Translations under genes and position numbers: made by a program
The notes under the pieces: model-generated
The model's input: the letters and a program-made list of their open reading frames with translations, nothing else
What the model was told of the DNA's origin: nothing
Databases searched by the model: none
IMG/VR virus record: IMGVR_UViG_3300029267_003506
Source of the DNA: a virus
Taxonomy: Duplodnaviria > Heunggongvirae > Uroviricota > Caudoviricetes
DNA: 64,000 nt
Strand: one strand, 5' to 3'
Shown here: positions 32,990 through 54,642 of the stretch, piece by piece
How the letters are laid out: each line of letters opens with the position of its first letter
Numbering within the stretch: position 1 is the stretch's first letter

Positions 32990-33583
32990 TTATGTGCCGA
33001 GAATGCGCGTCGCCAAACGCAGCAATTTCCTCACGGTTGCCTGCCTCTGTTTCTTCGCTTTCTCGTCCTTGTATTGCCTCAATAATCCTGGGAGAGCCTT
33101 CCAGCATGCCCTCTTTTCCTCGTCCCAGTCGTGTCTCAGTTCCTCGTCGCTACCACGCGGCACAAAACCGTCTTTCGTCCGCATGAGCCACCAGTTGCCC
33201 TCTTCCCTGGGCACGATGATACAAAACCTTTCCCCCGAACTAATGGGTCCGCCGCCCTCGTACTTCTGAATCCGAAAATAGTAGGTGCCTTGCTGCCAGT
33301 CTCCGCCCGCAGCGCATAGTTCGCACTTGCACCTCATCTTGTCGTTTACTGGTTTTCCGTCCTTCGCAGACTCAAAGGCATCTTCAGGAGTGTCGATAGC
33401 AACACGACGCTGCTCGATTGCATCGTCGTTCTCCAGGTTAAACTGAATACCCTGGCTTTTTTGAGCCTCTTTAACCTTCTCGCGCCAGTCGTCCCTGGCA
33501 AGGTCGCTCACGTCAAAGAAGTGCTTATCAAGTCTAGCCATGTCTCTCTCAATCCAGTGGTTCAAACCCAAAACTGTCCACAA
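32990..33583 (-). CDS. hypothetical protein
   Basis: 197-aa ORF. Confidence 0.5.
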   Translation of the reverse strand: MWTVLGLNHWIERDMARLDKHFFDVSDLARDDWREKVKEAQKSQGIQFNLENDDAIEQRRVAIDTPEDAFESAKDGKPVNDKMRCKCELCAAGGDWQQGTYYFRIQKYEGGGPISSGERFCIIVPREEGNWWLMRTKDGFVPRGSDEELRHDWDEEKRACWKALPGLLRQYKDEKAKKQRQATVRKLLRLATRILGT

Positions 33584-33971
33584 TCCACGCTTTGTTGCCG
33601 ATTTTGATTACGTCGCCGACAGACATAGACGTGTGATGTGCGCCTGACTTGCGAATGAAATCACGCGCCTCCCCGCCGGGTGACCACCTCTCACCTTGCA
33701 TCATGGCGAATATCTTGTTCAGGTTCGCCTCCTTGATGGAACCCAAAAGCACGTGTGTCTTTTTGAGCACCTTCGGGTCGGGCACTAATCCTTGCTTGCG
33801 CAGCCAATTCATTCCCATCATCCCGTCCCGCGCAAAACGGTCGTTCTGATACCAAATTTCGGTGCGTCCCGGAGCCAGTCCCTTCTCAAAAACCTCGAAA
33901 TCATTCAAGGTCCGAAACTGGGCAATTAGAAGCCTCGCCACAGCCAATATTTCTCTTGCGATACGTTCCAT
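33549..33971 (-). CDS. peptide-box family member (divergent N-terminal box MERIAREILAVARLL)
   Basis: N-terminal amphipathic box, then a unique C-terminal part. Confidence 0.5.
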   Translation of the reverse strand: MERIAREILAVARLLIAQFRTLNDFEVFEKGLAPGRTEIWYQNDRFARDGMMGMNWLRKQGLVPDPKVLKKTHVLLGSIKEANLNKIFAMMQGERWSPGGEARDFIRKSGAHHTSMSVGDVIKIGNKAWIVDSFGFEPLD

Positions 33972-33980
33972 GGGATCCTC

Positions 33981-36900
33981 CTATGCATATTTCCGCTTAA
34001 GATCAGCAACCATCTTCTCAACCTGCCTGATGCCCTCTTTGGTTTCAGGGATGCTCACCGTCTCTCCCCTATCAATGCGCTTGTGACGCTGGTAGATGCC
34101 ATTGACGCCCCACCCGGGTGTGCGCATGATAACCCACCGATAGAGCAACAACCGCACATCCTCTTCCTCGTTCAGGGGGATGCTATACATGTCCTTCGCG
34201 TGATATTTCATCCCCAGACGTCTTTCAAGGAGCGCGATGAAATCCTTTGGTCGTATCCTGTCTTCTTCCCCGGACTGCTCGCCAAATATCTTCTCCAGGC
34301 GACGAGCCGGCAGTACCACCTTCGGGTCGGCAGCATCCTTTGTCTCGTCCAGCGTCACAAACTTCGACTTGAAGATGTTAGTCTTCCTGCCGCCCACGAA
34401 AGCAACCGAATTGTAGAGCGCAGCATTGTCGTGGTGGGCGTACTTGTAGACGTCAAACGAAACGTAGTCATCTCCCTCCAGGTCTATCAGCACCTTTACC
34501 GTCCAGCCGTCTCTCGTCGCATGTGCCCTCTTGATGCCTGCCTTTTTGACTGGCGCGAATTTCTCAACCCATGCGCTGAATCTAGGAAGTGCGGATTTCA
34601 TAGTCCCCACGAAATCTTCCATCTCATCCTTTTGTTTCTTTTCCCTTTCTTCCTTTTCTTCCTTGGATTTCTCGTAGCGCTTTTCTAGTTCCTCACGCCG
34701 GCGTTGCTCTCTGACATCCTGGAGATTGATGATGTTCGGAGCCGTCGCCAAAATCGCCTGGGCAACCCTCTCCTCTACAGTCATCTCGGAAGAAAGCCTC
34801 ATGAGACCAGTTGTGCGCTCTCCGGTCTCCCTTGCGCGCTGTCTCACTTGTCGCATTGTAGGACCGCGCTTGACCCAATCCACGAGTTTCTTAAGGAGTG
34901 TTTCGTCGCCGCCTCGCTGCTTGATTGACCAGAAATCATGCTCGTTCCAGCGCTGGTCTCTCCCATCTACCAGCAAGTAGTTCGCCATGAAATCACGGGA
35001 ACCCACCCCAACACGCCGGGCACTATCCGGGAGTCCCATCTGCATGCCAGCCTTCCCGTGTCTCTCTCCCAAGTACTTCAACCCCAGTTCATGGAGTTTC
35101 TCTTTCAAAACCAGTGACCGTTCTTCCATTGTCTCATTGCGCTTCTGAGGCTCGACCCGGAAAACATTGACATAGGGCTCCTTGGTAAAAACATACGTGT
35201 CTTTCTCTCCCCGGTTGCCAATCACGGTCACAACGAGCGCGTCGTCCCGCACCTCAGCATACGGAATTTCTTGGACACCAATCTCGGCAAGGGCTTCATC
35301 TAACGGCTTCCCAAGTGGCTTTCTGGAAACCGCTTTGGGTCTCTTCGCGCGGTGTGTTTTGCCAGGAAAGATGGCAGCGTGAGACCATTTTGACCCGTTC
35401 CCGTATTCACGCACGACTTTGGCAAAATCCTTATGCGTCGGAACGTCCAAAACGGCAGCAGCAACCCTCTCGGCGATGCTGCTTTGGTCCAGAAAGCCAA
35501 TCTCTTCCTGGTCGTCGATTCCCGCCTCGCACGCAACAGTATCAGCAAGAAGACTCAACTCCGTCGCAATAACCTGCATATCCATAAGATCCTCCTCACT
35601 CGCCACCTTGAGCCCGTTAACTTTTCTGAACAAATATACCAGACGCTCAGGCATCGGTTTGTTCGTGATGTAATGCGCAAATGCCTCAGCGTAATCTTCC
35701 CGCGTATTGTTTTTCCCGTATTCCGTCGTGCTCTCCAGTTCAACAAGTGTCGCGCCGATTGATTTCCTCGCCGCATCCTTAAGACGCCCGAAAGGCTTGT
35801 GGACGTATTTTTTCATGAATTCATAGTCTTCCCTCGGTCGACCACGCATCCTGCTGGGAAGAATCTCCGGGTCTTGCTCGCCGGCTAATACCTCAGCCAC
35901 AGGCGGAATCCACTTGGCATCCCAGTAAGAACCGCCAAATGATCCCTCTTCGACTAGGTAGCCGATGTACTTCCTGCGAGCCGTCTTGATGTTGCCGCCT
36001 GAAAAACCGTGGGCGCTCCTCACTATCAAATCGTACACGTCTAGTAGCGCGTGCTTCGCCTGCCCCCTTCTAAGCGCAGCCAGAAATCTCTTGTATCCGA
36101 ACTCTGTCCAATTCGGATACTCAAACCCTAGCGCGTCTTTCTCGAACGGAACAGCCTTCTTGAACAACGCATAAACCATGTCCACCTGCTGCTTACTCAC
36201 TCTCGTCGCCCGGTTCTCAAAGTCCCCCTCCCACATCGCCCGCTGCGTCGAGCCCATCTTCTTGTACCAATGTCTGTGCCCCAGTTCATGTGCAAACAAC
36301 GTAGGATTTATGCTGTCCGCATTCACCACCACGATGTCCCTCGACTGGTCATAGTAGGCACCCGCCGTCATGCTCTTGTACTTCTTCGCCTGGTCGTTGT
36401 AAACGCTGAACCCGTCAAGCTTGCTAGAGACGACAATTATTGGACCATACAATACATTGCCGAAGCCGAGTTTCTTCATCTTGGCAATGACAGGCTTTAA
36501 CTCAGAAAGAGCCCTAGCCATGTGGTCATCATTTAGACCAGCATTGACAATCGTGAATGGTCCGTACTCGAACTTCTCTTTTATCTTACCGTAACCAGCG
36601 GCACCCTCTCCCTTGCCTGTCCCAAAGACGTAGCCGTGCTTCTCCAAGAGCGCCCGGAGCGTATCGGCACCTTGTTCGGCTCGCTGCAATAGGCTCGGGC
36701 GCTCAGACGATTCGAGACTCACCATGCTTGGGTCGTAGCCTTCCTTGAGAAGATAATCGAGTTTTTTGACTACCTCGCGTGTGTTATCGTCCTGCAGCAC
36801 GGCGTGGGCTAACGTCGATTTCTCGTTCGGTCCATAGAGACCATTGACCATCATGCCAAGTGAAACGCCATGGTCGCGTTTGAAATCAGTCATCGCGTTC

Positions 36901-37037
36901 TTGAGGTCGGACAAAGAACCACTCTTGGCTGCGTCGTACAAGATGGTCTGAAGATAATCGTTGACGGTGGGCTTGTCTGCCGCCTCTTCAGCAGAATGTT
37001 TAACGAAGGCTTCGGCAGTCGTGGATACGCACCTCAT
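33981..37037 (-). CDS. giant ankyrin-repeat plus zincin (HELGH) metallopeptidase protein; polyvalent-protein-like
   Basis: N-terminal ANK-like repeats (TLAHAVLQDD...VVKKLDYLLKEGYDP). HExxH at LFAHELGHRHWY. 1018 aa. Confidence 0.65.
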   Translation of the reverse strand: MRCVSTTAEAFVKHSAEEAADKPTVNDYLQTILYDAAKSGSLSDLKNAMTDFKRDHGVSLGMMVNGLYGPNEKSTLAHAVLQDDNTREVVKKLDYLLKEGYDPSMVSLESSERPSLLQRAEQGADTLRALLEKHGYVFGTGKGEGAAGYGKIKEKFEYGPFTIVNAGLNDDHMARALSELKPVIAKMKKLGFGNVLYGPIIVVSSKLDGFSVYNDQAKKYKSMTAGAYYDQSRDIVVVNADSINPTLFAHELGHRHWYKKMGSTQRAMWEGDFENRATRVSKQQVDMVYALFKKAVPFEKDALGFEYPNWTEFGYKRFLAALRRGQAKHALLDVYDLIVRSAHGFSGGNIKTARRKYIGYLVEEGSFGGSYWDAKWIPPVAEVLAGEQDPEILPSRMRGRPREDYEFMKKYVHKPFGRLKDAARKSIGATLVELESTTEYGKNNTREDYAEAFAHYITNKPMPERLVYLFRKVNGLKVASEEDLMDMQVIATELSLLADTVACEAGIDDQEEIGFLDQSSIAERVAAAVLDVPTHKDFAKVVREYGNGSKWSHAAIFPGKTHRAKRPKAVSRKPLGKPLDEALAEIGVQEIPYAEVRDDALVVTVIGNRGEKDTYVFTKEPYVNVFRVEPQKRNETMEERSLVLKEKLHELGLKYLGERHGKAGMQMGLPDSARRVGVGSRDFMANYLLVDGRDQRWNEHDFWSIKQRGGDETLLKKLVDWVKRGPTMRQVRQRARETGERTTGLMRLSSEMTVEERVAQAILATAPNIINLQDVREQRRREELEKRYEKSKEEKEEREKKQKDEMEDFVGTMKSALPRFSAWVEKFAPVKKAGIKRAHATRDGWTVKVLIDLEGDDYVSFDVYKYAHHDNAALYNSVAFVGGRKTNIFKSKFVTLDETKDAADPKVVLPARRLEKIFGEQSGEEDRIRPKDFIALLERRLGMKYHAKDMYSIPLNEEEDVRLLLYRWVIMRTPGWGVNGIYQRHKRIDRGETVSIPETKEGIRQVEKMVADLKRKYA

Positions 37038-37046
37038 AATCTCTCT

Positions 37047-37076
37047 CTGAAAAAGGGGGGCATTTAAGCCCCCTGA
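37047..37076 (-). terminator. intrinsic terminator or attenuator hairpin immediately 5' of the giant gene
   Basis: GGGGGC-ATTTAA-GCCCCC stem followed by TTTTTC on the minus strand. It ends about 10 nt before the RBS and ATG at 37037. Confidence 0.5.
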
Positions 37077-37112
37077 CCGGTGTTGTCCCGGCGTGTGGGT
37101 GCGCGGCGTTCC

Positions 37113-37700
37113 TTATGACCGCGCCCCAAATCCTTCCATTTCCAGCAACTCAACCGCTGCTAGTTCGTCTTCCGGCATCGTCTTCGACAGCGCCAGGACC
37201 CGTACCGTCACCCCTCGCGAATCGCCCACAATCCATGCCGGTTCCTTCCGAAAATCCAATTCCGGAATGTCACGCTCGATGGCAAACACTTCACGCTTTA
37301 ACCGCTGACGAAGTTCCTTCTCTGTCGCCGTCGCCCAACCAACAGAAACCAGGGAACCAGCAGGACCAATCGTCGTCTCAAATCCCAAAACAAACCCGCG
37401 CGCCGTGTAAGAGTAGAACTTCTCCGTGCGCACTGCAGCCGTTTTCTCGACCTCGGAGGCTACTTTCCGTTCTTCCAAATCCGGGAATTGGGACTGAATC
37501 TCCCTGGCTAACCACAGAGTGCCCTTTTCCTCTGCCTTTTCAAGCATCTGGTCAATCCTCCGCGCCGTCGCCGGAGAAAGCCCCCGTAGCCGGTTCCCGT
37601 CGTCGCGTAGCATCCACATGGCAAGGTTCAATGCCCACTTCTCGACACGAGCCGCTAGACAGATGACCTCATTCGCGATACGTTCTGCGATGCGCTTCAT
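37113..37700 (-). CDS. peptide-box family member (divergent box MKRIAERIANEVICLA)
   Basis: N-terminal box variant. 195 aa. Confidence 0.5.
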   Translation of the reverse strand: MKRIAERIANEVICLAARVEKWALNLAMWMLRDDGNRLRGLSPATARRIDQMLEKAEEKGTLWLAREIQSQFPDLEERKVASEVEKTAAVRTEKFYSYTARGFVLGFETTIGPAGSLVSVGWATATEKELRQRLKREVFAIERDIPELDFRKEPAWIVGDSRGVTVRVLALSKTMPEDELAAVELLEMEGFGARS

Positions 37701-38122
37701 CGGAACCCCTTTATCAGCGGAACTATACCCTTATCTGGCAGCCCTGTTTCCTTCTTGCCGAGAATCTTGTCCTTGTCGAGACCCAATCCGAAGATGTCCG
37801 AGAACTCAATCAGCCCACGCGGCCCCTCGCCGCTGTAGCCCCATGAGAACCCATCGAAATTGTGCGTCGCCCTGTGGCCGTCGCTCGGGCGCACAAAGTC
37901 CACCTCCAGGTCCCAGTTGACACCCGTCTTGTCGTACTCGTAGACCGGGTCATCTGCAATCTCATAGCCAGCGCCCTTGATGAGCCGGGCGTTCGCGATG
38001 CTGGCTCTGGTTGCCCCCTCGGTCTTTAGCTGTAGGGGTCTCATAATCGTGAACGGGCTTTTCACAGCCTCCAGCAGCTTGGCCACCCGTATGAGTTCAC
38101 CCGCAATGCGCCTGTCGTCCAT
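37697..38122 (-). CDS. peptide-box family member (MDDRRIAGELIRVAKLL)
   Basis: Canonical N-terminal box. RBS GGAGGAA. Confidence 0.6.
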   Translation of the reverse strand: MDDRRIAGELIRVAKLLEAVKSPFTIMRPLQLKTEGATRASIANARLIKGAGYEIADDPVYEYDKTGVNWDLEVDFVRPSDGHRATHNFDGFSWGYSGEGPRGLIEFSDIFGLGLDKDKILGKKETGLPDKGIVPLIKGFR

Positions 38123-38163
38123 CTCATTTCCTCCAAGGGCTTACGTTCACTCACCCGTACCAG

Positions 38164-38180
38164 AATATCAAGAAAATATG
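38164..38180 (+). promoter_or_regulatory. AATATCAAGAAAATATG motif
   Basis: Divergent intergenic region, 43 nt upstream of the ATG at 38223. Confidence 0.4.
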
Positions 38181-38222
38181 ACTTTTCAGGGACGTTCTAC
38201 GCTCGACCCTGATTAGAGGAAA

Positions 38223-38573: not shown

Positions 38574-38632
38574 GGCAGCAAGCGCCACGAAGGAGGGGAA
38601 ACGGCATATTGGGACGCGCTCATCTACACGAA

Positions 38633-38649
38633 AATATCAAGAAAATATG
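38633..38649 (+). promoter_or_regulatory. AATATCAAGAAAATATG motif
   Basis: Upstream of the GAGACCGGTTATA motif and gene 38706. Confidence 0.4.
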
Positions 38650-38673
38650 GGATTTTAACGTCACCTACGATTT

Positions 38674-39011: not shown

Positions 39012-39012
39012 T

Positions 39013-42456: not shown

Positions 42457-42840
42457 TCAGCCTTTCAGCGGGCCTGTCTTCTCGTAGCCCCTGTCCCGAA
42501 GAATTTCCTCTCCGCTGTTCTCGTCGGCAAACTCGACAATGCCGTTCAGGATAACATACAGACCTTCTTTCGGAATGACCAGCGCCGTCTTCGCCCAGTA
42601 AATATCCTTCGCCTCGGGACTCAATCCTTTCACCTCGGACATGGCCACCTTTTTGATGTCTTCCTCGGTGTCTATGATTCCTTTGACTGTCCGGCTGCGC
42701 CCCAATGTTGCCCTCACGTGCCCGCGAATCTGGATGTGGAATTCGCCGTCACCTTTCGACAAATAGGTCTTGGTGCCTTTGTAGGCCGTCAGGTTCTTGG
42801 CCAATTGCACCAGATCTCGTGCTACCCGTCTCTTGTTCAT
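42457..42840 (-). CDS. peptide-box family member (MNKRRVARDLVQLAKNL)
   Basis: Start at the box Met, 42840, with RBS GGAGAAAACC. The ORF track extends further upstream in frame. Confidence 0.55.
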   Translation of the reverse strand: MNKRRVARDLVQLAKNLTAYKGTKTYLSKGDGEFHIQIRGHVRATLGRSRTVKGIIDTEEDIKKVAMSEVKGLSPEAKDIYWAKTALVIPKEGLYVILNGIVEFADENSGEEILRDRGYEKTGPLKG

Positions 42841-44722: not shown

Positions 44723-44911
44723 TTACGCCCCGGATTCCATGAGATGTTCCAGCAAGAACGGACAATCTATCGGCACATCACGCTCGTCATATGGTTCCTT
44801 GGCTTTCAAACACTCTGCTCTCGCTCGCAGGCGCTCGTTCATGCACCGAAGCCAACGAGCCTCTTTGCACCTGTTGCAAACCATAAGATTGTGGTGGACT
44901 TGACTTTCCAT
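44723..44911 (-). CDS. small Cys-rich protein, CPFxLEHL family
   Basis: CNRC...C...DCPFLLEHLM C-terminal motif shared with three paralogs. Confidence 0.45.
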   Translation of the reverse strand: MESQVHHNLMVCNRCKEARWLRCMNERLRARAECLKAKEPYDERDVPIDCPFLLEHLMESGA

Positions 44912-46283: not shown

Positions 46284-46631
46284 ATGGAACTCGTCATCAC
46301 GGCTGTCCCCACAAACGAGAACCGCATACCAGCCATCAAAGCGCTCCGCGAAGTCACTAATCTGGGGCTCAAGGATTCAAAACTCATCATTGACTCGGTC
46401 GCAGCCGGTGAAACACGGCAAATCTCCCTCAACAAGGAAAAAGCCACCCGAGCGACAACAACACTCCACAACGCCGGCTTCACCTTCTCCACCTACGACC
46501 CAAGTGACGACATTATCCAACACATCAAGGCAGCCATCCAATTGGCAACTCAGCGAGAAATGCCTTCCGTGCTGCCGCATCTCACCGTGGCTTTTGCAAA
46601 AGCGCTTGAACTGAAAGAACAAATCACATGA
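46284..46631 (+). CDS. ribosomal protein L7/L12 C-terminal-domain homolog (stand-alone CTD)
   Basis: IPAIKALREVTNLGLKDSKLIIDSVAAGE...LNKEKATRATTTLHNAGFTF aligns with the bL12 CTD ([26 protein letters not shown]...). No N-terminal dimerisation or L10-binding domain. Confidence 0.6.
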   Translation: MELVITAVPTNENRIPAIKALREVTNLGLKDSKLIIDSVAAGETRQISLNKEKATRATTTLHNAGFTFSTYDPSDDIIQHIKAAIQLATQREMPSVLPHLTVAFAKALELKEQIT

Positions 46632-46840
46632 AATATCTCATTTGGAGCATCGAGCACAATGCCTGGTGGGCTCCCAACTCGCGGGGATACTCAACCGAAC
46701 TCAGCGGAGCCGGTATCTACGAACGGAACGAGGCGAGTAAAATCATCCGAGGCGCAAACAGGTGCGGCGAAACCAACGAATGTATGATTCCGGTCGCCGC
46801 GATGCTCTCTGGGCTCCACGCAGAAACAGAAACAGAGTAG
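46628..46840 (+). CDS. hypothetical protein
   Basis: 70-aa ORF. Confidence 0.4.
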   Translation: MKYLIWSIEHNAWWAPNSRGYSTELSGAGIYERNEASKIIRGANRCGETNECMIPVAAMLSGLHAETETE

Positions 46841-47009
46841 GTGAAAACGTCCCTGATCCAAACAGTAGAACTCAAGGGACCGCTCGAATAATCAGCAACT
46901 GTCCTGACACGCCTTCACATGAGTGGATTCAAAGCCACAAGGGGAGGTCCAGACGCAGATGACCCCGCCAACCGTTATCATGTGATTGCTGACAGGCGAG
47001 TACTCTAGG

Positions 47010-47189
47010 TCACGAGCCCGGCGTTCGCTTCATCAGGTGTTCAAGCACGAAAGGACACCAGGACGGCAATTCCTCCGGTTTCCTCGCGATAACTCTCACT
47101 GTGCCATCTGCCTCTCGCAAGTGCTTCCTTTTGAAACACCTGTGGGCACGGCGGCAATGTTTCTTGCACAACTCATAATCCGGCTTCAT
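47010..47189 (-). CDS. small Cys/His-rich protein, CPFxLEHL family
   Basis: MKPDYELCKKHCRRAHRC...SWCPFVLEHLM, not in the ORF track. The ATG sits 6 nt downstream of TGATATAAT, implying a leaderless transcript. Confidence 0.4.
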   Translation of the reverse strand: MKPDYELCKKHCRRAHRCFKRKHLREADGTVRVIARKPEELPSWCPFVLEHLMKRTPGS

Positions 47190-47194
47190 GTTTT

Positions 47195-47204
47195 CATTAT
47201 ATCA
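47195..47204 (-). promoter_or_regulatory. extended -10 element TGATATAATG
   Basis: 6 nt upstream of the ATG at 47189. Leaderless candidate. Confidence 0.45.
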
Positions 47205-47301
47205 CCTCAGCGCGACACCGGACACAAAAAATGATCCCCACTCTTGCGAGCAGGGATCACGTGAGGAGAACAGCCGCTGGGAGAGGCTGGTTCCGTGAAT
47301 T

Positions 47302-47439
47302 TCAGGTGGCTTTTTTCAGGTCCTTGGCTAGCGTATCCATTGTCCTCGAAACGGTGGACAGTTTACCAGACAGTTCCCCACACAAGTTGCGCAGTAAAAA
47401 TGCCGCATCTTGCGTGTCGTAAAAATCCATTTTGTCACC
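47302..47439 (-). CDS. tiny hypothetical ORF
   Basis: 45 aa (MDFYDTQDAAFLL...) with RBS GGCAGAGGTGA. Speculative. Confidence 0.2.
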   Translation of the reverse strand, partial: GDKMDFYDTQDAAFLLRNLCGELSGKLSTVSRTMDTLAKDLKKAT

Positions 47440-47489
47440 TCTGCCACTATCCAGCGCTTTCAACGCCTCTCGGAGTTCTCGGAAGGTAC

Positions 47490-47924
47490 TCAGAACGTCA
47501 TCTGACCGCGCATTCTCTTTTCGAATTGCTTCAGTTCCCTGCGTTCTGCGGAGGTCAGGTCAGGTTCTTTGTCCCAGAGTTCCTTGACCCTCTGGCGTTC
47601 TCTCTTGTTCAGGTTGCTCGGTTCGTCCGCCGCTACGATTTCCTTCGCCAACCGCAGCAACTCGGATGCTACCGCAGAGGCAGACAGGTTCCTCATCAAG
47701 CCCTTCTTGTTTTTGATGACTTGTTGCAGCCCTCGGATTACGCTCTTGGCTCCGTCCTCGCTCAGGTTCTCCACTGATTCGCCCCTCTGAATCTTCTTCA
47801 GGGCATCTTCGTACCAACGCAGGTCAGCCTCGTCCTTTTTCAATGCGGCTTCCCATTCCTTCTTCGTCGTCCTGGGCATCTGACTCCTCCATCTAACCGT
47901 CGCGCAAGTTTTCTTACGCGACAA
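47490..47924 (-). CDS. peptide-box family member (box internal: SAVASELLRLAKEIVAA)
   Basis: The box lies at about aa 84-97. An alternative start MRNLSAS at 47696 would make it N-terminal. Confidence 0.5.
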   Translation of the reverse strand: MSRKKTCATVRWRSQMPRTTKKEWEAALKKDEADLRWYEDALKKIQRGESVENLSEDGAKSVIRGLQQVIKNKKGLMRNLSASAVASELLRLAKEIVAADEPSNLNKRERQRVKELWDKEPDLTSAERRELKQFEKRMRGQMTF

Positions 47925-48094
47925 TTTCTCGGTTCAACTCAATTTGCACTTCATCTGATTCTTCTTCGCCGCACCTGTTTCGCAAGATGCGCTGAACGGA
48001 GTATAGCATACTCAGCAGCGTATTACATGACCGAATGACTTGCGTTTCCGAGGTGGGCTCATCGGTCAAGTCTGACACACTCATCGCACACCTC

Positions 48095-49444
48095 CTAGAA
48101 CATCATACTCGGCAATTTTATTCCCAAAGCGTGTGCTGCCTTGAAGATGTTGTTTCTGTGAAGGTCCGCTCCCCTTACATGACCGCTCACGCTCATCTTT
48201 AGTCGGTTTATGGCTTCCCTCTGATTGCGGTCAGGCGTGAAATCCTTAGCAAGTTGAACCGCAACCTTGAGTGCCAGTTCATACGTCTGCTCGTCTACTT
48301 CGCTTTTCAATTTGTGAATGTCCTTCGGGTCAATCAGGGCATAGAACAAACTTTCAGATGCTTGCCTGTTGCCTTCTTCTGAGGCGCTTTTCTTCTTCAG
48401 TGCTGCGAGGTCCTTTTTTAACGCAGTTTCGACCTTCTTGATGTCAACGTCGTCAAGATCAAGATGTCCAGCAAGAGCCTTCAGACTGGCAACGTCTTCC
48501 CTGAGCGCCTGTTGTACCCGGTTGCGCAAGAGTTTGAGGTCGAGCTTGTCACCTTCGGCTTTCGTTGCCTTGTCGTGAAGAGCCTGCATTTCCTTCACAG
48601 CGTCTTGGACCTTTTTCTTGGCTTCCTCTGGCGTCATGTTTTTGGTGGGTGCGTAGGTAATCCTCTTTGCCAGCCGCACCAATTCTCTCGCGACCTGTCT
48701 CATCTCTGCTCCTTCTCTCGGATGTTTCCAGACCCGTTCCTGCCGGCTACATCCCTTCGGTTTTCCGTGGCACGTTCTTTTCCGCTGCTTTTCCATTTCT
48801 CTCTGGATTTGCTGCTTGTGTTTCTGGTTGTATTTCCGTTGCTCTTTGATTTTTTTCTTGCGCTGGATTCCCTTTAATGGTGGTTCCTTGGTTACAGCCA
48901 TTTGCGTCGCCGAAGAAGTTACCATCTCCGTCATGACCTTCGTAATCTTTTCCTTCAGTTTTCTGAGGATGTACGCCGGCACCTTCCTTAAAGCGAGGGG
49001 TATCGTCCTGATTATGCTACCCATTTCGTCATCCATCAAGAGGGCGCGCGCATGGTGCATTCTGCTGCTTATCTCCTTTTCACCATTTTTCTCCATGACC
49101 ATTAGCAAGCCATCGTATGCCTCTCGCGCCAGCTCCCCGACGAGGGCATTTTTGAACGTTTTCATAGCCTGCTCAAAGCGCTCCTGGATACCCTTAATCT
49201 CCTTCTGTACTCGGTGTTTACCATCCGGAGTGTAGTAGTGTGTGAACCAGTACCACAGCCCAGCAGACTTTACGATGCCAAACCAGGCACGTCGTAGTGA
49301 TTTCGACGTTAAAATCACGTCAGCCCACCAATTCAGCGGCAACCGGTCAAGGCAAATCGTCATACAGCTCGCGTGAACGGGACCATATTTCCCCTTCACG
49401 CGCTTGCATGCTGCCAAAACAAAATCAGGGACCTCGTCTGTCAT
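48095..49444 (-). CDS. peptide-box family member (box internal: MRQVARELVRLAKRI at about aa 248)
   Basis: 449-aa ORF. There is an in-frame ATG at 48702 with RBS GGAG, so it could be two products or one protein with an internal box. Confidence 0.5.
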   Translation of the reverse strand: MTDEVPDFVLAACKRVKGKYGPVHASCMTICLDRLPLNWWADVILTSKSLRRAWFGIVKSAGLWYWFTHYYTPDGKHRVQKEIKGIQERFEQAMKTFKNALVGELAREAYDGLLMVMEKNGEKEISSRMHHARALLMDDEMGSIIRTIPLALRKVPAYILRKLKEKITKVMTEMVTSSATQMAVTKEPPLKGIQRKKKIKEQRKYNQKHKQQIQREMEKQRKRTCHGKPKGCSRQERVWKHPREGAEMRQVARELVRLAKRITYAPTKNMTPEEAKKKVQDAVKEMQALHDKATKAEGDKLDLKLLRNRVQQALREDVASLKALAGHLDLDDVDIKKVETALKKDLAALKKKSASEEGNRQASESLFYALIDPKDIHKLKSEVDEQTYELALKVAVQLAKDFTPDRNQREAINRLKMSVSGHVRGADLHRNNIFKAAHALGIKLPSMMF

Positions 49445-49454
49445 TTTCCAGTCC

Positions 49455-49799
49455 TTATCCGGTCACAACAATCCTGGCTATCTTCACCAGTTCAGAAGCC
49501 ACGTTAAGCGCCAAACCGGTAGGAACAGTATGGTATCTCGCCAGACTAATGGGATAGCGCCGGTCGTTCGTCAAACGCACTCTTAATGCCGTTTGTTGAT
49601 CCTTCAGCATGATCTCTTTTTGACTGCGCTTCGACACTTTCCAGCCGGCAGAAGTCAAAACATCCACAACGCCGAAAATGTCATCGCTCGACACTAAGAA
49701 TCGTTCTATCGCGCCACTCATCGCGTCGGGTTTCTCAACCACGCGAAAGCCTGCCCGCTTGAGAGTGTAGGGTATCGCAGGTTTGGCTCGTCGCTTCAT
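49455..49799 (-). CDS. peptide-box family member with the box at the C-terminus (ALNVASELVKIARIVVTG-stop)
   Basis: 114-aa ORF. Confidence 0.5.
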   Translation of the reverse strand: MKRRAKPAIPYTLKRAGFRVVEKPDAMSGAIERFLVSSDDIFGVVDVLTSAGWKVSKRSQKEIMLKDQQTALRVRLTNDRRYPISLARYHTVPTGLALNVASELVKIARIVVTG

Positions 49800-51307
49800 T
49801 TTCTCGTGTCCCAGCGCGTCACAGTCAAATCAGGATCGACCGTGAACAAAAAAGCACCCGAGTTGTTTATCGGATTCAATGCCTCGTTTTCCTTGAACGT
49901 CACTCTCCACACCGCCGTTCCGTAGGAGTTACCAGGATAGACATACGCTCTTTGCTCGTGCTTTCCGGCATAGTAGCCCCCAGAGATAACCGCGCTGTTA
50001 ACATCTCCCTTGTTCCGAGCCTTGAGTTTCATTCCCTGGAGTTGCTCGGTTACTCGCTTTTCGGCACGTCCATTCGTCATCCGCAATTTCATGCTAGCCC
50101 TTTTTGCGATTTTCACCATCTTCAGTCGGGCGCGCTTCACTTTTTTGATGACCTCGCCGTCTGATTCGAATTCCCCCGCGATGGTCATGGTCTTGCCCTT
50201 AAGCACTGGTCTGGGAGAAACATCCTCGTATCCATTGAGCCACGCATCAAAATCATCTGCCATGTCTTGAGGCAAGTTCCTGTCCAACCAATCAGCGCTT
50301 ACCATGATAAAACAACGTTCAGGGTAACGCTTATCCACTCCTCCTAAACCGACCGAGGTTCCGTACTGTCCTTCGTAAACCTTCACGAACTGTATCTTCA
50401 GTTCTAGTTCAGTCTTAGTAGGAGCCCGTGGAAATCCTTCGAGTGCGTCCTTTGTACTCTCCCTCTCGGCATCTTCTAACATGCGTTCCCACATCTTGTC
50501 TGGAATACGCACACCGTCATCTAATTCCCCCAGCCATTTCTTCCAGAAATCGTTGTCGCCCAACCATTCTTTGGCAAAGTCGATTTCTTTCCGGTGCTCA
50601 TCAAACCACGGATCTTCTTTCTCTTCTTGAACGAGCCCGAGATTTGCTGGGCGGTCAAACGTAACTTGGAAACCGACAAGTTCAGGACCTAGCCCCTCCT
50701 TCTCGTTGTACTTCATCTTGCCTTTTAACTCTCGCACAATACCGTAATCATCGACAAAATACACGTAGAGCATGTATCGCTGCTTTTTGCCCCAGTTTCT
50801 CCCGTGCCAGTATTCCGTACCAACAATGCCCGTGTAAGGCTGGGAAGGTGCCTTGGCAAGCATCTTAGCAGAAAAATAGCCACTCGTCGGGCTCTTGCCA
50901 CCTCTCTGAATCATACGTTTGATGAAGTCACGTTGCTTCGGGGACTCCCAAAGACCATTGTTGCTCTTTGTCAAAGACCTCAGTGACCGATATAGCCGTC
51001 CCTGCGGTTCTCCTCCCCCTGCTTCATCCATCAAGAACTTTGCCCTGGAACCCAACAGCAAGTCGGCAACTCTGATTAGTTCGACAGCAATACGCCTGTC
51101 TGTTGTCTCACCGTCTTTTTTCACCGACATCCTTGCCGTGCGTTTCCGGGCTTTCAGTCTGGGCTTCTGCCTGTCTATTTCCCACTGCCCCTTTCGCATG
51201 ATCCAAGGCACACCTTCATACCAAAACAACGTCGCCCCCATCTGCGCCGCCGTTGCTTTGGCTTTTTGGAAAGTAATGTTGGTATATGTGACGTCAGCGA
51301 TACTCAT
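49796..51307 (-). CDS. peptide-box family member (box at aa about 70: TDRRIAVELIRVADLLLG)
   Basis: 503-aa ORF. ATGA overlap with the upstream gene. Possible alternative start MSVKKDGETTDRR. Confidence 0.55.
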   Translation of the reverse strand: MSIADVTYTNITFQKAKATAAQMGATLFWYEGVPWIMRKGQWEIDRQKPRLKARKRTARMSVKKDGETTDRRIAVELIRVADLLLGSRAKFLMDEAGGGEPQGRLYRSLRSLTKSNNGLWESPKQRDFIKRMIQRGGKSPTSGYFSAKMLAKAPSQPYTGIVGTEYWHGRNWGKKQRYMLYVYFVDDYGIVRELKGKMKYNEKEGLGPELVGFQVTFDRPANLGLVQEEKEDPWFDEHRKEIDFAKEWLGDNDFWKKWLGELDDGVRIPDKMWERMLEDAERESTKDALEGFPRAPTKTELELKIQFVKVYEGQYGTSVGLGGVDKRYPERCFIMVSADWLDRNLPQDMADDFDAWLNGYEDVSPRPVLKGKTMTIAGEFESDGEVIKKVKRARLKMVKIAKRASMKLRMTNGRAEKRVTEQLQGMKLKARNKGDVNSAVISGGYYAGKHEQRAYVYPGNSYGTAVWRVTFKENEALNPINNSGAFLFTVDPDLTVTRWDTRK

Positions 51308-51594
51308 TTCACGGTTGCCTTTGCCTGCTCAAAGAGACCATGCACCGTCGAATTCATTGTGCGCAGAGCCGGAATGATGTGGGCGTCAATAATATCCGGA
51401 GAAATCGTCCTGCCTGCTCCTGCCCGCTGCGCTCCCTTAAGTTGCCTCTGAGCAGCGTCCACGGCTTTCTGCACCCGATCTAAGTCCTGCTGCAGAATCT
51501 TCACCAACGAGTCACCGCTCTCGATAAGCCGGGTTGCCTGTTCCCACTGCTTTTCGCTATATGCTACGCGCTCGGCAATTTCGTTTTGATTCAT
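51304..51594 (-). CDS. hypothetical protein (MNQNEIAERVA...)
   Basis: Start at 51594. Its N-terminus resembles that of gene 58176..58526 (MNQEQVADRVA...). Confidence 0.45.
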   Translation of the reverse strand: MNQNEIAERVAYSEKQWEQATRLIESGDSLVKILQQDLDRVQKAVDAAQRQLKGAQRAGAGRTISPDIIDAHIIPALRTMNSTVHGLFEQAKATVK

Positions 51595-51607
51595 GCCACA
51601 ATCTCCA

Positions 51608-52024
51608 TCAAAAAGCCTGCAGACGGAATTTCTGTCTCTTAACGACTTTCTCCGCAGCAGCAACATCGTCAGCAGAAAACGAAGCGCCCCCGGAGACGTA
51701 CATGCGACCACCAACATTCAACAAGACAGCATCCGTCGGCTTCTCGGTTATCCTGTACGCCGAACCATTTCCCTTCAACCCAGCCTCGACAGCGGAGAGT
51801 TTCTTAGCCATCTGCTTGACTGCATCATTGGCGTCGGCGTTGACGTCCTTGAGAATGTCACCAGTTCTTACCTCCCTGAGTGCTTGCAGGATAATTGAGT
51901 CACCGATAACGTCATACACGAAAAACATCCCAGCCGCTTCTTTTGCCCCGCCAACGAGTTCCTTGGCTAGGCGCACCAATTTCTCGGCTACCATCTTATC
52001 TGAAACACGCGCCTTCTTACTCAT
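51608..52024 (-). CDS. peptide-box family member (MSKKARVSDKMVAEKLVRLAKELVGG)
   Basis: 138-aa ORF. Confidence 0.55.
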   Translation of the reverse strand: MSKKARVSDKMVAEKLVRLAKELVGGAKEAAGMFFVYDVIGDSIILQALREVRTGDILKDVNADANDAVKQMAKKLSAVEAGLKGNGSAYRITEKPTDAVLLNVGGRMYVSGGASFSADDVAAAEKVVKRQKFRLQAF

Positions 52025-52047
52025 CCTTTTCCTCCGTCTGCAGAATC

Positions 52048-52524
52048 TTAAACCGATGCCTCAACGCTCACCATCTTACTCATCACATCCTTGAATGCAT
52101 CCAAGGCAACATTGAGTTTTTTGACAGTGTTCCGGATAACAGGCTCCCGGCTCCGCTTCATCTTATCCCTGACCGCAGTAAACTCGTCCTGCAGCCTTTC
52201 TAGCCGTGAAATAGCCATTGCGATTACTGAGCCCATGTCCGCGCCAGCAACAGGACGATGAGAAGCCGTCAAGTACAAACTCTCAGCACTCCTTTTCAAC
52301 CGAGCCAGCAAAGTCACCATGCTCTTGAGGGCGTCATTTAACAAACTCGCGGCGTCAGGATTGGACTGGCGCAGGTCACGATACCACCGATTCAGGGAGT
52401 TGTATTCAGTGTCGAGTTTGTCAATCAGTTCATAGGGAAACTTCGTTTGCCACTCGTCCACTTCAGGAGAAATATCTCTGGCGATGGCAACCAGTTCCTT
52501 GGCGATCTGAATGTTGTTCATCAA
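52048..52524 (-). CDS. peptide-box family member (variant MMNNIQIAKELVAIARDI)
   Basis: 158-aa ORF. Confidence 0.5.
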   Translation of the reverse strand: MMNNIQIAKELVAIARDISPEVDEWQTKFPYELIDKLDTEYNSLNRWYRDLRQSNPDAASLLNDALKSMVTLLARLKRSAESLYLTASHRPVAGADMGSVIAMAISRLERLQDEFTAVRDKMKRSREPVIRNTVKKLNVALDAFKDVMSKMVSVEASV

Positions 52525-52583
52525 GTGCTCCTAAAACAGACTGGCTTTGATTTTCGAAGTTGTCACGCCAGAGCCCGTCCCCC

Positions 52584-52979
52584 TCATGTAAAAACCGCAG
52601 CCAGGTGAGCAGCGATCCTACGAACCGGAAGAACACCCTCACCCTTCACCCAGTTCATCATATCGGCTTCGTCGCTCCAATCAGACCGTTTCCCGCTCAG
52701 GTGGATTTCGAACTTTTCACCCTCGAAAATGATACTCAGCGTCGCCGTCGCAGCAATGTCACTCGCCGCGTAACCACTCATGAACATATTGTATTCCCGC
52801 GCGGCACGATGGGTACGCTGAATTTGCCGGATGCCTTTGAACTCGGACTTGATCTGCTTCTCCAGGTCATCCATTAGATCGCTGTAGGCACGATGGAGAT
52901 ACGCCGTCACACGCAAATCGTCAGCCTTCGCCATCAGCGTCTTCGCCATCCTCAATAGCGCACTGGCTACCTCTTTCAT
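52584..52979 (-). CDS. peptide-box family member (MKEVASALLRMAKTLMAK)
   Basis: Start at the box Met, 52979. The ORF track extends to 53051. Confidence 0.5.
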   Translation of the reverse strand: MKEVASALLRMAKTLMAKADDLRVTAYLHRAYSDLMDDLEKQIKSEFKGIRQIQRTHRAAREYNMFMSGYAASDIAATATLSIIFEGEKFEIHLSGKRSDWSDEADMMNWVKGEGVLPVRRIAAHLAAVFT

Positions 52980-53022
52980 CTTCCCGCCTTTCTGTGCCGA
53001 GTACAATCGCAAAAACAACGTC

Positions 53023-54642
53023 CTACGGAACCGGACCCACGTGCGTTGCAATGCGGTTTATCGCCGTCGCAACGTCAACAGGCGGAGAACCACCCCAATC
53101 AGCCGGATTCGCAGTCAGACCCAACCCAATCGCATTCTGGGTCAAACTCAGCGTGCCACCAAAGCCGCCGGCAATCAAGCTACTGGCAGATCTCGCATCC
53201 GCATAGGCTGTGCTGCTCAAGTTGTACGTCGAGCCCCCAAACTCACAAAACATGAATGGAGCCCAACTGTACGTCCAAACCCCTACCACCGAACCACCAG
53301 TCACAGCAGTCGTAGCATCAATGTCACTGTACGTCACCTGCTCCGCTCCGTAAATCTTGGCATTACCCCTGATCGGCACCCCAAGATACGAGTCCAAAGC
53401 AGACACCTCCAGCGATGAATACACGCTGCTGAATTGCGACCCCATCTCCGACGAACTATCCCCGTTGCGAATGGAAGCGCTCCGGAACTCAGCATACCAC
53501 GAGAGATTGGATAGAGAAGCGTCCCCGGCAGGTTGCACAATGACGCCACCCTGCGGCAGCCTGGTTCTTTCGCAGTAAAACCACTGGTGATGACTTCCGT
53601 AGTAGCCCTCGCTGATGAGACGCACCCCATCCTCGATTGACAGACCAAAAGGCACATAAGCCGTCGGCGCGTGTCCCAGCAGGTGATAGCCAATGAATGT
53701 CTCGGCTGAGGTATTGGCAGCGTTGTTCAGTGGCTGTGGCACCATGCTTGTGACAGTGCCGCTGATGGTCGCCGGTCCTGTCCCCGAGTGCAATGTCAGA
53801 TTTCCAGACGGTGGGTGGGCACTGCCTATCCAACCGCCAACGTAAGCAGCCGCAGGGCGCACGTAAATCGTCATGAGGTCGTCTGCGTAGCCAATGGCGA
53901 CATACTCGTTTGACGCCCCATCCCGATAAACTGCTCCGAATGTTGAAGTTGCGTAATTTGACCCGTATGTAACGCTGATGTCCGGAGCACTTGCCGCTGC
54001 AGCCGACAGGTGATATGCCCAGCAGTCTGCCAGAGGGGGTCCAGTAATAACGGTGGCGGGATACGGCAACACATCCATGAAGGCAATCGCATTCGGCAAG
54101 TCAGCAATCGCATTCCGGCACGTGAGTTGCCCAGTGAAATACGCGAACTTACCCTCAACCCTGGTCACTCGGCGATGAGCACGCAGGGTAACGTTACCCT
54201 CATCATATACCCCGTCAGCCAGGTAGTAGGTCACACCCCGGGTCGCCCATTCGTCGTAATCGTTGCCGTGCGGGAAGTTGGCTGCGAACCACGTCTGCGC
54301 AGCCCCCAGCGTCAGGAAAGGCAATCCTCTTGAGCCGTCCGCTGTAGAGTCGTCGCCCCGAGCCGCGTCAATGTAAATCGAGTAGGGATACACACCACTT
54401 GCTGTGTAAAGACCGCCGAGTGCATTTTCTGCTCGTGATTCCGTATGAGTGCAATACGTCTGCCAGCCGGTATTTGCAATCGACAACCACCGACCCTTCA
54501 CCAGCAATGCCTCCCGCTCCTCTGATTCGTAGATAACCTCGCCGGCGGCAATGTTCAGGATGCTCCGATCATGCACCGGAATAACCTGTTGACCGATTTC
54601 TCCCAGTTGAAACGCCTGGTCTGCTGTCCATGTCTTTATCAC
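53023..54642 (-). CDS. tail fiber / tailspike-like structural protein
   Basis: 539 aa, rich in Gly, Ser, Thr, Ala and Tyr, with a beta-helix-like composition. GTG start with RBS GAGAGGAGAGAG. Assignment rests on composition only. Confidence 0.45.
   Translation of the reverse strand: MIKTWTADQAFQLGEIGQQVIPVHDRSILNIAAGEVIYESEEREALLVKGRWLSIANTGWQTYCTHTESRAENALGGLYTASGVYPYSIYIDAARGDDSTADGSRGLPFLTLGAAQTWFAANFPHGNDYDEWATRGVTYYLADGVYDEGNVTLRAHRRVTRVEGKFAYFTGQLTCRNAIADLPNAIAFMDVLPYPATVITGPPLADCWAYHLSAAAASAPDISVTYGSNYATSTFGAVYRDGASNEYVAIGYADDLMTIYVRPAAAYVGGWIGSAHPPSGNLTLHSGTGPATISGTVTSMVPQPLNNAANTSAETFIGYHLLGHAPTAYVPFGLSIEDGVRLISEGYYGSHHQWFYCERTRLPQGGVIVQPAGDASLSNLSWYAEFRSASIRNGDSSSEMGSQFSSVYSSLEVSALDSYLGVPIRGNAKIYGAEQVTYSDIDATTAVTGGSVVGVWTYSWAPFMFCEFGGSTYNLSSTAYADARSASSLIAGGFGGTLSLTQNAIGLGLTANPADWGGSPPVDVATAINRIATHVGPVP

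Follow-up and report, generated by a model that had tools for sequence, protein, structure and literature searches.

A recurrent helical box on otherwise unrelated small proteins of a phage G-like huge phage: a docking helix with a possible destination in the head

Introduction

What might a short peptide do that recurs on many proteins having nothing else in common? The question is raised by a stretch of 64,000 nucleotides from a virus of the Caudoviricetes (IMG/VR record IMGVR_UViG_3300029267_003506), the whole of which is here called the window. The huge uncultivated phage to which it belongs carries a 17-residue helix of the form M-D-x-R-R-V-A-x-E-L-V-R-L-A-K-x-L, the box, on at least 23 otherwise unrelated small proteins. 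The box is very probably a modular docking helix. As a portable, amphipathic address tag it would enable many unrelated accessory proteins to bind one common partner. As to this partner, the analogy with the capsid targeting sequence (CTS) of phage T4 and with the targeting peptides of encapsulins points to the interior of the prohead, and the chances that the box is a head-targeting peptide working like the T4 CTS appear evenly balanced.

The box and its copies in the window

The core of the box was scanned as V/I-A-x-E-L-V-R-L/I/V-A-K-x-L. The regular expression, which had been fixed before any profile hidden Markov model (HMM) was built, matched 17 times on the minus strand of the window against once in the three plus-strand frames. 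A six-frame scan with the main HMM, seeded with 17 window copies, yielded 19 box matches of 11.5-35 bits, while the best noise reached 3.6 bits. All 19 are minus-strand matches from the region 33.9-61.7 kb; two of them (61607-61666 and 59621-59677) were absent from the seed. An earlier note, made from the letters of the window, had counted at least 19 members there, and this number holds. With another 4-5 copies in the 7.4 kb just past the right end of the window, the genome contains at least 23 boxes.

To avoid circularity, an independent HMM was built only from 12 copies outside the range of the finding under study and was run on positions 33000-53100. It found 7 copies at 10 bits or more and 9 copies at 8.3 bits or more. 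Two hundred composition-preserving shuffles of this region gave a mean of 0.01 matches at 10 bits or more and a top score of 10.3 bits. Enrichment over shuffled sequence, one of the two points on which the earlier note had said that its idea could fail, came out in favour of the box. A de novo search for recurrent short matches also returned the box as the dominant cluster.

In its usual form, M-D/N-x-x-R/K-V/I-A-x-E-L-V-R/K-L/I/V-A-K-x-L, the box has its core from residue 6 onwards, as is the case in 11 of 18 window genes. The copies are, from right to left:

61607..61666, minus strand: box MDERRIAGELVRIAKEMIAA, N-terminal in gene 61382..61666 (94 residues); 27.0 bits, not in the seed; AGGAG upstream.
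61312..61371, minus strand: box MTNKRVAAELVRIAKVLSGG, N-terminal in gene 61024..61371 (115 residues, the remainder being an encapsulated ferritin domain); 30.9 bits.
60905..60964, minus strand: box MNKKQVARELVRVAKRLVSG, N-terminal in gene 60608..60964 (118 residues); 35.0 bits.
60502..60561, minus strand: box MDKKRVAAELVRLAKGVSSD, N-terminal in gene 60217..60561 (114 residues); 29.4 bits.
60142..60201, minus strand: box MDERRVAAELVRLAKELTAK, N-terminal in gene 59770..60201 (143 residues); 31.6 bits; most partners in the de novo search.
59621..59677, minus strand: weak box MDRKELAKKLVRLAGSIMG, N-terminal in gene 59195..59677 (160 residues); 11.5 bits, not in the seed; the orthologue in locus L084 has VAKQLVKLAGTI at the same position.
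59414..59473, minus strand: second box MAKEELATELVRLAKALVAG of gene 59195..59677, at about residue 69, following a duplicated G-P-x-D-G-T/S-G-P...ECPM segment; 24.2 bits.
59129..59188, minus strand: box VDDCLLAQELLKVARILTSG, N-terminal in gene 58523..59188 (221 residues, GTG start); 22.6 bits.
58106..58165, minus strand: box MDDRRVARNLVRMAKELAGS, N-terminal in gene 57737..58165 (142 residues); 31.6 bits.
52926..52985, minus strand: box (GK)MKEVASALLRMAKTLMAK, N-terminal in gene 52584..52979 (131 residues), which in the source's own gene call begins at the Met of the box; 24.8 bits, independent HMM 10.3.
52462..52521, minus strand: box MNNIQIAKELVAIARDISPE, N-terminal in gene 52048..52521 (157 residues); 24.3 bits, independent HMM 8.3.
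51947..52006, minus strand: box VSDKMVAEKLVRLAKELVGG, core from residue 12 of gene 51608..52024 (138 residues), whose ATG at 52024 is preceded by GGAGGA; 26.8 bits, independent HMM 21.9.
51047..51106, minus strand: internal box TTDRRIAVELIRVADLLLGS, residues 68-87 of gene 49796..51307 (503 residues); 22.3 bits, independent HMM 9.4.
49458..49517, minus strand: C-terminal box GLALNVASELVKIARIVVTG of gene 49455..49799 (114 residues); 21.9 bits, independent HMM 14.6.
48650..48709, minus strand: internal box AEMRQVARELVRLAKRITYA, residues 246-265 of the open reading frame (ORF) 48095..49444 (449 residues); 27.5 bits, independent HMM 19.7.
47628..47687, minus strand: internal box LSASAVASELLRLAKEIVAA, residues 65-84 of gene 47490..47879 (129 residues according to the source's call); 22.4 bits, independent HMM 13.6.
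42781..42840, minus strand: box MNKRRVARDLVQLAKNLTAY, N-terminal in gene 42457..42840 (127 residues), called by the source from the Met of the box; 29.9 bits, independent HMM 27.1.
38063..38122, minus strand: box MDDRRIAGELIRVAKLLEAV, N-terminal in gene 37697..38122 (141 residues), boxed orthologues of which were found in L089 and L097; 29.0 bits, independent HMM 26.4.
33918..33977, minus strand: divergent box (DP)MERIAREILAVARLLIAQ, N-terminal in gene 33549..33971 (140 residues); matched by the regular expression, independent HMM only 2.4 bits.

Regular expression and HMM agree that the boxes lie in frame where the earlier note had placed them, and ten of its eleven further copies stand (those at 52979, 52521, 52024/52006, 51106, 49517, 48709, 47687, 42840, 38122 and 33977). 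The last of these can be regarded as genuine because the orthologues of its gene in L071 (54% identical) and L070 (48%) bear the canonical boxes VALQLVRLAKSL and IAHQLLRLAKSI at the same place. The eleventh, claimed for 37113..37700 (RIAERIANEVICLA), is missed by both HMMs and had to be removed from the family; what it does match is another, less frequent motif, [VI]A[ED]R[VI]A. The C-terminal end ...ATVRKLLRLATRILGT of 32990..33583 (minus strand) resembles a C-terminal box; with 1.8 bits it is within the noise and was rejected.

The four atypically placed copies form one contiguous run at 47.5-51.3 kb. For the internal ones the earlier note had offered two options: either the segment upstream of the box is not translated, or the box also works inside a protein. 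The in-frame start codons with ribosome binding sites that it had mentioned are there, one at 48703-48701, with GAAGGAG 6 nucleotides upstream, the other at 47696-47694, a possible alternative start of gene 47490..47879 with the weaker GAAGGG. For 48095..49444, the C-terminal stretch of about 100 residues is a stand-alone, N-terminally boxed protein of about 105-140 residues in L017, L031 and L081, which, together with the good ribosome binding site at the internal ATG, suggests that this copy results from a gene fusion or a nested gene. An internal start is not supported for 49796..51307. The nearest Met upstream of its box lacks a properly spaced ribosome binding site and the ATG of the long frame (51307) overlaps, by coordinates, the end of the upstream gene (51304), so that this box, in which the conserved Lys is replaced by Asp, is truly internal. 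Residues 4-63 of 47490..47879 match an unboxed stretch of a 419-residue ORF in L032. In gene 49455..49799 the stop codon immediately follows the box (...VVTG), and C-terminal boxes recur beyond the window, in L018 (ERKEIAARLVKLAKYLVR, then the stop) and in P0112. The tag thus seems to be modular and to work independently of its position in the protein.

Selection on the peptide and the nature of the helix

Is it the peptide or the underlying nucleic acid that is conserved? In 153 pairs of copies the amino-acid identity is 0.53 versus an identity of 0.36 at third codon positions. Where the residue is identical, the codon is identical in 0.37 of the cases versus 0.29 expected from codon usage. 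Synonymous sites are thus nearly saturated, which indicates that selection acts on the box peptide and not on the DNA; the variation at these sites rules out a DNA- or RNA-level element as the nature of the box. An AGGAG-like ribosome binding site precedes the Met of most N-terminal copies by 5-10 nucleotides; the DNA upstream of the copies is not conserved.

These data bear on the idea that the box has no function as a peptide at all, being a relic of recent gene duplication or the translation of a DNA or RNA element conserved where genes begin, for instance a recombination site or an enhancer of translation. The tandem arrangement of the genes and the preference of the box for gene starts behind AGGAG-like sites would fit such a view. 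It fails to account for third codon positions that are near random where amino acids are kept, for the divergent upstream DNA, for the copies at C-termini and inside proteins, and for carriers whose folds are unrelated and whose cellular homologues lack the box (see below). Already contradicted by the codon, masking and upstream-DNA results, it has practically no chance of being right.

The logo of 220 distinct copies reads M-[DN]-[NRK]-x-[RK]-[VI]-A-x-E-L-V-[RK]-[LIV]-A-K-x-L-[VT]-[AGS]. Its most conserved positions are two Ala spaced seven apart and flanked by Leu/Val and charged residues, an arrangement that fits one face of a predicted amphipathic helix. The box often terminates in a small residue or Gly, to be followed by a linker.

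An Ala heptad with Leu/Val and charged flanks is typical of tightly packed helix-helix interfaces. One might therefore think of boxes that bundle with each other via an Ala-core coiled coil into a mixed assembly, be it an inner-body-like mass or a condensate, without any receptor; that one protein bears two boxes would also fit. A single helix of 12-17 residues is, however, short for a stable coiled coil, and the ferritin among the carriers already forms oligomers of its own. By itself, self-association would explain neither the exchange of an encapsulin peptide for the box nor the linkage to head genes, both described below, and we consider it improbable.

The carriers share only the box

With the box masked, no pair among 21 proteins matched in BLASTP at E<0.01, and residual paralogy among the carriers is thereby ruled out. 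Scans of 20 window carriers against Pfam and PHROG revealed nothing in common and no family that covers the box region, and in 148 carriers from other contigs no family covers the box either. These 148 proteins match 16 Pfam families, each via one member only, e.g., RNA_ligase (2e-34), PolyA_pol+HD of the CCA-adding type, Rubrerythrin/EncFtn and DUF2958. One carrier, from the locus of a relative, has an LPD29 domain ('large polyvalent protein'). Carrier sizes range from 60 to 495 residues with a median of 122, and enzymes are included.

A leader of ribosomally synthesised and post-translationally modified peptides is not what we see, because the carriers are folded proteins including enzymes and not short core peptides. 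Nor does the box look like a Sec or Tat secretion signal, since its core has conserved E, R and K and no uninterrupted hydrophobic stretch; a dedicated signal-peptide predictor was not run. What the earlier note had called a transferable docking peptide and not a domain fold is supported from several sides: the masked carriers are unrelated, each Pfam family is represented by one member, and in the case of the ferritin to be discussed below the cellular homologues are unboxed, the position of the box varies and the model presents it as a separate helix.

Distribution

Degenerate DNA patterns for the box fetched 14 loci from IMG/VR and 76 from metagenomes. In these 90 loci, 397 kb in all, the box HMM detected 261 boxes of at least 12 bits, up to 15 in a 12-kb locus, and wherever a locus had several boxes, they were all on one strand (56 of 56). 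Of 182 boxes outside the search pattern, 108 have a Met exactly 5 residues before the core, and 150 have one no more than six residues away. By contrast with this abundance, 185,579 species-representative bacterial and archaeal genomes (596 Gb) contained only 5 weak single matches, which is about chance. The box is phage-specific and, among phages, restricted to particular lineages.

Other searches returned little. None of 50,697 phage records was matched by 20 kb of the window in megablast. The consensus box gave nothing in tblastn against the phage records, and a search of IMG/VR for loci related to the 141-residue carrier yielded no relative. The box profile found one match among 5.8 billion proteins (E=1.5); a motif of 20 residues cannot reach significance at such a database size. 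A literature search for the peptides ELVRLAK, IRLAHENP and similar ones produced no relevant paper, and the literature found on capsid targeting in jumbo phages comprises work on T4 and SPN3US only.

A ferritin that has exchanged its tag

The most telling carrier is encoded by gene 61024..61371. It matches the Pfam family Rubrerythrin with 32.1 bits (cut-off 22.8). In the AlphaFold2 model, which has a mean predicted local distance difference test score of 90.8, the box is a separate helix (residues 2-18), connected by an 18-residue linker to a ferritin fold. The top PDB folds retrieved by Foldseek are all cargo ferritins of encapsulins, with 5N5E first, then EncC and EncB, and also the encapsulated ferritin (EncFtn) of R. 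rubrum. E51, E53, H56, E80, E81 and H84 are invariant in the EncFtn alignment, as expected for the E-x-x-H iron ligands of the two-helix half-ferritin fold. By sequence and model, the protein consists of box, linker and EncFtn.

The cellular homologues of this protein are 60-69% identical, are annotated as 'ferritin family protein' and belong to Brocadiia or Planctomycetota. They start unboxed with MPEF(V/L)NPF and end with P(T/S)VGDLKE. The native encapsulin targeting peptide of M. xanthus is PLTVGSLRRGG (PMC7925596), and comparison with its LTVGSLRR shows that the cellular ending is of the encapsulin targeting-peptide type. The phage versions lack this tail and have the box instead. Its position varies: N-terminal in the window phage and L071, immediately behind the domain in L099/L044, and right at the C-terminal end in P0112, located on a related phage contig whose terminase is 66% identical. 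The box thus takes the place of the encapsulin targeting peptide on a captured ferritin.

There is also a third arrangement. In L018 and L012 the ferritin domain is fused into a protein of the head module, the '488-family', encoded between portal and protease. The insertion is an EncFtn domain in L018 and a Ferritin domain in L012 (1.3e-24); the family member of the window phage (L002:14020-15486) has neither. Since box, encapsulin shell-targeting peptide and fusion to a head protein all occur on ferritin domains, they may be interchangeable ways of handling the same cargo. Outside the inserted domains, the 488-family (L012:7627-9408; L018, about 5689-6690) is characterised by an N-terminal domain with ...RGSSLWG...QHDP.E and a zinc ribbon. 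The fusion protein of L018 ends with another motif, G-P-G-I-P-D-G-T/S-G-P...C-P-M/F, which follows the box in some carriers (59195-59677, where it is duplicated, L084, L018 and several metagenome carriers) and which we take to be reminiscent of the DGTGP motifs in small Cys-containing proteins of anaerobes.

Linkage to head genes

From which kind of phage does the window stem? It encodes the terminase large subunit (5745..7586) and the portal (3074..5089), and to its left the 116.7-kb source contig continues with a head maturation protease and the major head protein. The latter matches gp27 of phage G (PDB 6WKK, 1.2e-62), its identity being 68.8% to the protein of LR745208.1, a 485-kb uncultured phage, 47.6% to that of Tunturiibacter phage Tunturi_5 and 38.1% to that of phage G; the window therefore belongs to a huge phage of the phage G type. 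The protease gene, 9 kb past the window, matches phrog_18299 (7.8e-15). Its product has no detectable relation to a solved protease and no match to a Pfam Peptidase family.

Three relatives with capsid proteins 84-90% identical have box genes among their head genes: in L018 these separate the protease from the scaffold-like genes, in L017 they follow the capsid gene directly, and in L012, the head module of which is syntenic with that of the window phage, they adjoin the protease. Loci with other head genes have them between a gene on the terminase side and the portal (L035) or between 488-like and 117-like genes (L069). The latter designation refers to a family of 117 residues (W-x-Y-[AS]-R-W...ATGNRRYG; L002:16195-16548), whose gene lies a short way upstream of the protease gene and turns up again within box-gene arrays in many contigs, ten box-rich loci among them (L031, L039, L044, L048, L056, L069, L073, L097, L099 and L100). 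The family may be no more than a sign that head genes are near, or else a candidate partner of the box.

A second shell, encoded by the phage itself, was also considered. No encapsulin or Linocin family was found among the window proteins scanned, which did not comprise every small ORF, and the capsid protein of the phage was the sole protein in which an HK97 fold was recognised.

A different tag in a close relative

Among relatives with a complete genome, LR745208.1 is the closest. The 100 kb around its head genes are free of the window-type box; a longer N-terminal tag, MTTLRSKLIRLAHENPALRPQLLPLLKEA, occurs there on three unrelated proteins and once more inside a 594-residue ORF. No Pfam family matches this tag, which shares with the box the core L-[VI]-R-[LI]-A-[KH]. 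In locus L021 its copies are found in:

4859-5914: carrier of MTTLRSKLIRLAHENPALRPQLLPLLKEA.
13137-13541: carrier of MTTLRSKLIRLAHENPALRPQLLPLLKEA.
48245-48619: carrier of MTTLRSKLIRLAHENPALRPQLLPLLKEA.
46450-48234: ORF with the internal copy.

One of these carrier genes is located between a scaffold-like gene and the genes for decoration and capsid proteins. The carrier of 351 residues is orthologous (38-39% identity, E about 1e-37) to proteins that bear the window-type box in L102, L081 and L078. Different tags on orthologous cargo suggest that the tags are lineage-specific and functionally equivalent, which argues for a co-evolving partner from the phage and not for a conserved target in the host.

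A box-like helix is also present in an acidic protein in scaffold position, i.e., encoded between the protease and capsid genes (L002:19035-20081, 9 kb past the left end of the window; L012:942-1970; L021:13672-14940). It reads AASKAVRLAVLLLG(D/E)K in two phages with the window-type box and AAQCIRIASAMLGRK in LR745208.1. This helix could be the scaffold's own docking helix or a coincidence.

Where might the box lead its carriers?

The likeliest partner would lie inside the prohead as it assembles, either in the core formed by the scaffold or on the inner face of the HK97-fold shell. Proteins bearing the tag, synthesised late in infection, would become enclosed in the head, travel in the virion and probably be delivered along with the DNA. 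The proposed cargo would comprise EncFtn in this phage, and in relatives a nucleotidyltransferase of the CCA-adding type, an RNA ligase and the LPD29-domain protein. We infer that the partner resides in the prohead, that the tagged proteins are packaged and ejected, and that the nearly invariant A-x-E may be connected with cleavage by the prohead protease. A ferritin-like protein has been detected in purified particles of phage G (bioRxiv 10.1101/2024.12.16.628780), in agreement with such a destination.

A number of observations weigh against a destination in the head. The main weakness is that the box genes of the window phage itself are 26-55 kb upstream of its terminase gene; they stand there in arrays of small ORFans, which could be taken for early or accessory genes as readily as for head genes. 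The helix in scaffold position (AASKAVRLAVLLLGDK) resembles the box only weakly and is out of register with it. Neither a window-type box nor a comparable recurrent N-terminal motif was seen in the examined parts of phage G (1-50 kb and 447-497 kb) and Tunturi_5 (259-309 kb), which implies that the system is not general to the clade. The particle proteome of phage G, in which the ferritin-like protein was found, also contains many replication enzymes (bioRxiv 10.1101/2024.12.16.628780) and may therefore include contaminants. Finally, at least 23 distinct cargo species per genome would be a lot. Phages of the T4 type have roughly a handful of internal proteins bearing the CTS.

The distant location of the window's box genes, in arrays of small ORFans, would suit a docking helix whose hub is not the capsid: a chaperone or assembly factor of the phage, such as the MoxR AAA+/VWA pair of the window, the scaffold of a replication factory, or a host hub taken over early. 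The modularity of the box and the selection on its peptide fit a hub of this kind equally well, a MoxR-type AAA+ protein, a CobT/VWA protein and DUF2201 are encoded nearby, and the RNA-repair enzymes among the cargo could just as well act in the infected cell. What such a hub leaves unexplained is the replacement of the encapsulin shell-targeting peptide on EncFtn, the fusion of ferritin domains to a head-module protein in other relatives, and the box genes among portal, protease, scaffold-like and capsid genes in several of them. For a host hub, moreover, a constant tag would be expected, yet the phage with the 69% identical capsid protein tags orthologous cargo differently. On balance, we regard a non-capsid hub as unlikely, if well worth keeping in mind.

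A regulatory role would be another way to read the tag. The box might be a degron, or a site recognised or cut by a phage or host protease, and so set the lifetime or the processing of the accessory proteins. Within the box, conservation is highest in A-x-E-L (A 75%, E 71% and L 75% across the 220 distinct copies), terminal tags are typical of degrons, and the gene of a head maturation protease lies 9 kb outside the window. In T4 and phiKZ, the prohead proteases cleave behind L/I-x-E and S/A-x-E (PMC9026906). The conserved stretch of the box spans, however, no fewer than 12 helical residues and follows a heptad pattern, which is much more than the known prohead-protease motifs need, and the protease of the window phage shows no detectable kinship to solved proteases or Pfam Peptidase families. 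Cleavage and targeting are not mutually exclusive either: the T4 CTS does both. A purely regulatory tag is, in our opinion, quite improbable.

If the box indeed leads into the head, a broader picture may be drawn, which we offer tentatively and believe to be somewhat more often wrong than right. The phage G-like capsid would be a programmable cargo container reminiscent of an encapsulin. A lineage-specific, swappable helical tag would load at least two dozen proteins per genome, including a host-derived EncFtn with exchanged targeting peptide and enzymes of tRNA and RNA repair, which would be co-delivered with the DNA. Tag and receptor would co-evolve, so that close relatives differ in the tag on orthologous cargo.

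Comparison with known systems

The T4 CTS is an N-terminal peptide of IPI, IPII, IPIII and Alt that directs diverse, fast-evolving proteins into the prohead core; it can be transferred to foreign proteins, and its cargo is delivered into the next host (PMC3012670, PMC9026906). In the phage described here, too, a short peptide, mostly N-terminal, is the sole element common to otherwise unrelated proteins, and both CTS and box have a conserved Glu. The differences go beyond the number of carriers given above. The sequence of the CTS bears no resemblance to the box consensus. The CTS has 10 residues and is removed by gp21 after L/I-x-E, whereas the box is a predicted amphipathic helix of 12-17 residues that also occurs at C-termini and inside proteins. 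The window phage has a capsid of the phage G gp27 lineage and not a T4-type head (gp23/gp21). For packaging via the box, the evidence is indirect, namely the linkage to head genes and the tag swap on EncFtn.

Like the box, the targeting peptide of family 1 encapsulins is a short terminal peptide that loads unrelated cargo, classically EncFtn, into an HK97-fold shell, and the box sits on the same EncFtn domain that in cells carries P(T/S)VGDLKE. Unlike that peptide, the box lacks the GSL or (T)VG(S/D)L(K/R) motif, is predicted to be helical and not extended, and is mostly N-terminal. A dedicated shell gene beside the cargo gene, as in encapsulin systems, was not found among the window proteins scanned.

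The scaffolding protein of phage P22 ends in a small basic helix-turn-helix with which it binds the inside of the capsid; in experiments, this module has served to bring foreign cargo into procapsids. The tag of LR745208.1 (LIRLAHENP-ALRPQLLPLLKEA) looks similar in that a helix, a proline turn and a second helix may be discerned. In P22, however, the docking module belongs to one essential scaffolding protein and is not spread over many genes; no homology was seen, nor was any tested.

Polyvalent or MuF-anchored virion proteins contain effector domains that are believed to travel in the head and to act on host entry (Iyer et al. 2017, PMC5512222). The Dar proteins of phage P1 may be grouped with these virion-delivered effectors for comparison with the box carriers, one of which has the LPD29 domain. 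The architecture differs: many domains in one giant polypeptide anchored to MuF or portal there, separate small tagged proteins here. No MuF match was obtained with the window proteins of 786 and 1018 residues. The latter (33981-37037, minus strand) is flanked by box genes, contains by eye a zincin-type HELGH motif and has no Pfam match. Parts of it are separate genes in L071, where a paralogue of 447 residues with HEIGH (zincin-type HExxH, again by eye), which aligns with the HELGH-bearing region of the window protein, has an N-terminal box. In its sequence features, the 1018-residue protein resembles an unbundled 'polyvalent' virion effector.

In short, loading of cargo into a shell by a shared tag is known. 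New are the sequence of the tag, its helical nature, its free position, the scale per genome and the tag swap on ferritin.

Significance

ORFans make up the majority of genes in huge phages. With a recognisable tag, dozens of these in each genome could be assigned to a single functional class, for instance proteins that travel in the virion, and the ejected proteome of uncultivated phages could be predicted from sequence alone. The tag swap on ferritin is a natural experiment that links the cargo loading of encapsulins with that of phage capsids; the HK97 fold is known to be common to both, the loading logic is not. For engineering, too, a portable helix able to bring arbitrary proteins into a very large capsid would be a useful handle, like the T4 CTS or the P22 scaffold tag. 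Should the tag address some other hub, it would still define a docking system not described before, whose clients in environmental viromes number in the hundreds.

Other observations in the window

The second motif reads M-N-Q-x-[EQ]-[VI]-A-[ED]-R-[VI]-A and starts three more unrelated genes, 37113..37700 among them. Its four copies are all on the coding strand, compared with roughly 0.3 chance matches estimated for six frames, and only one more N-terminal example was found in 440 kb of related loci (L064). The copies are:

51562-51579, minus strand: N-terminal.
58494-58511, minus strand: N-terminal.
37674-37691, minus strand: N-terminal.
35460-35477, minus strand: inside the 1018-residue ORF.

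Three Cys-rich ORFs of 63-68 residues share the C-terminal sequence C-P-F-x-L-E-H-L (61778-61801, 44741-44764 and 47034-47057, minus strand) and may constitute a small family of zinc-ribbon-like proteins.

At 12994-14307, 22404-23639, 25321-27183 and 31448-32551 the window encodes a DUF2201 VWA/metallopeptidase, a MoxR-type AAA+ ATPase (AAA_5 + CbbQ_C), a CobT-like VWA protein and an SPFH/Band-7 protein. By their sequences, they look like chaperone or cage-type functions; a link to the box, if any, is putative.

Between 38200 and 47000 the minus-strand arrays are interrupted by a cluster of plus-strand genes, which includes a Pfam match to Ribosomal_L12 and a protein of the VVA0879 family according to the source's precomputed annotation.

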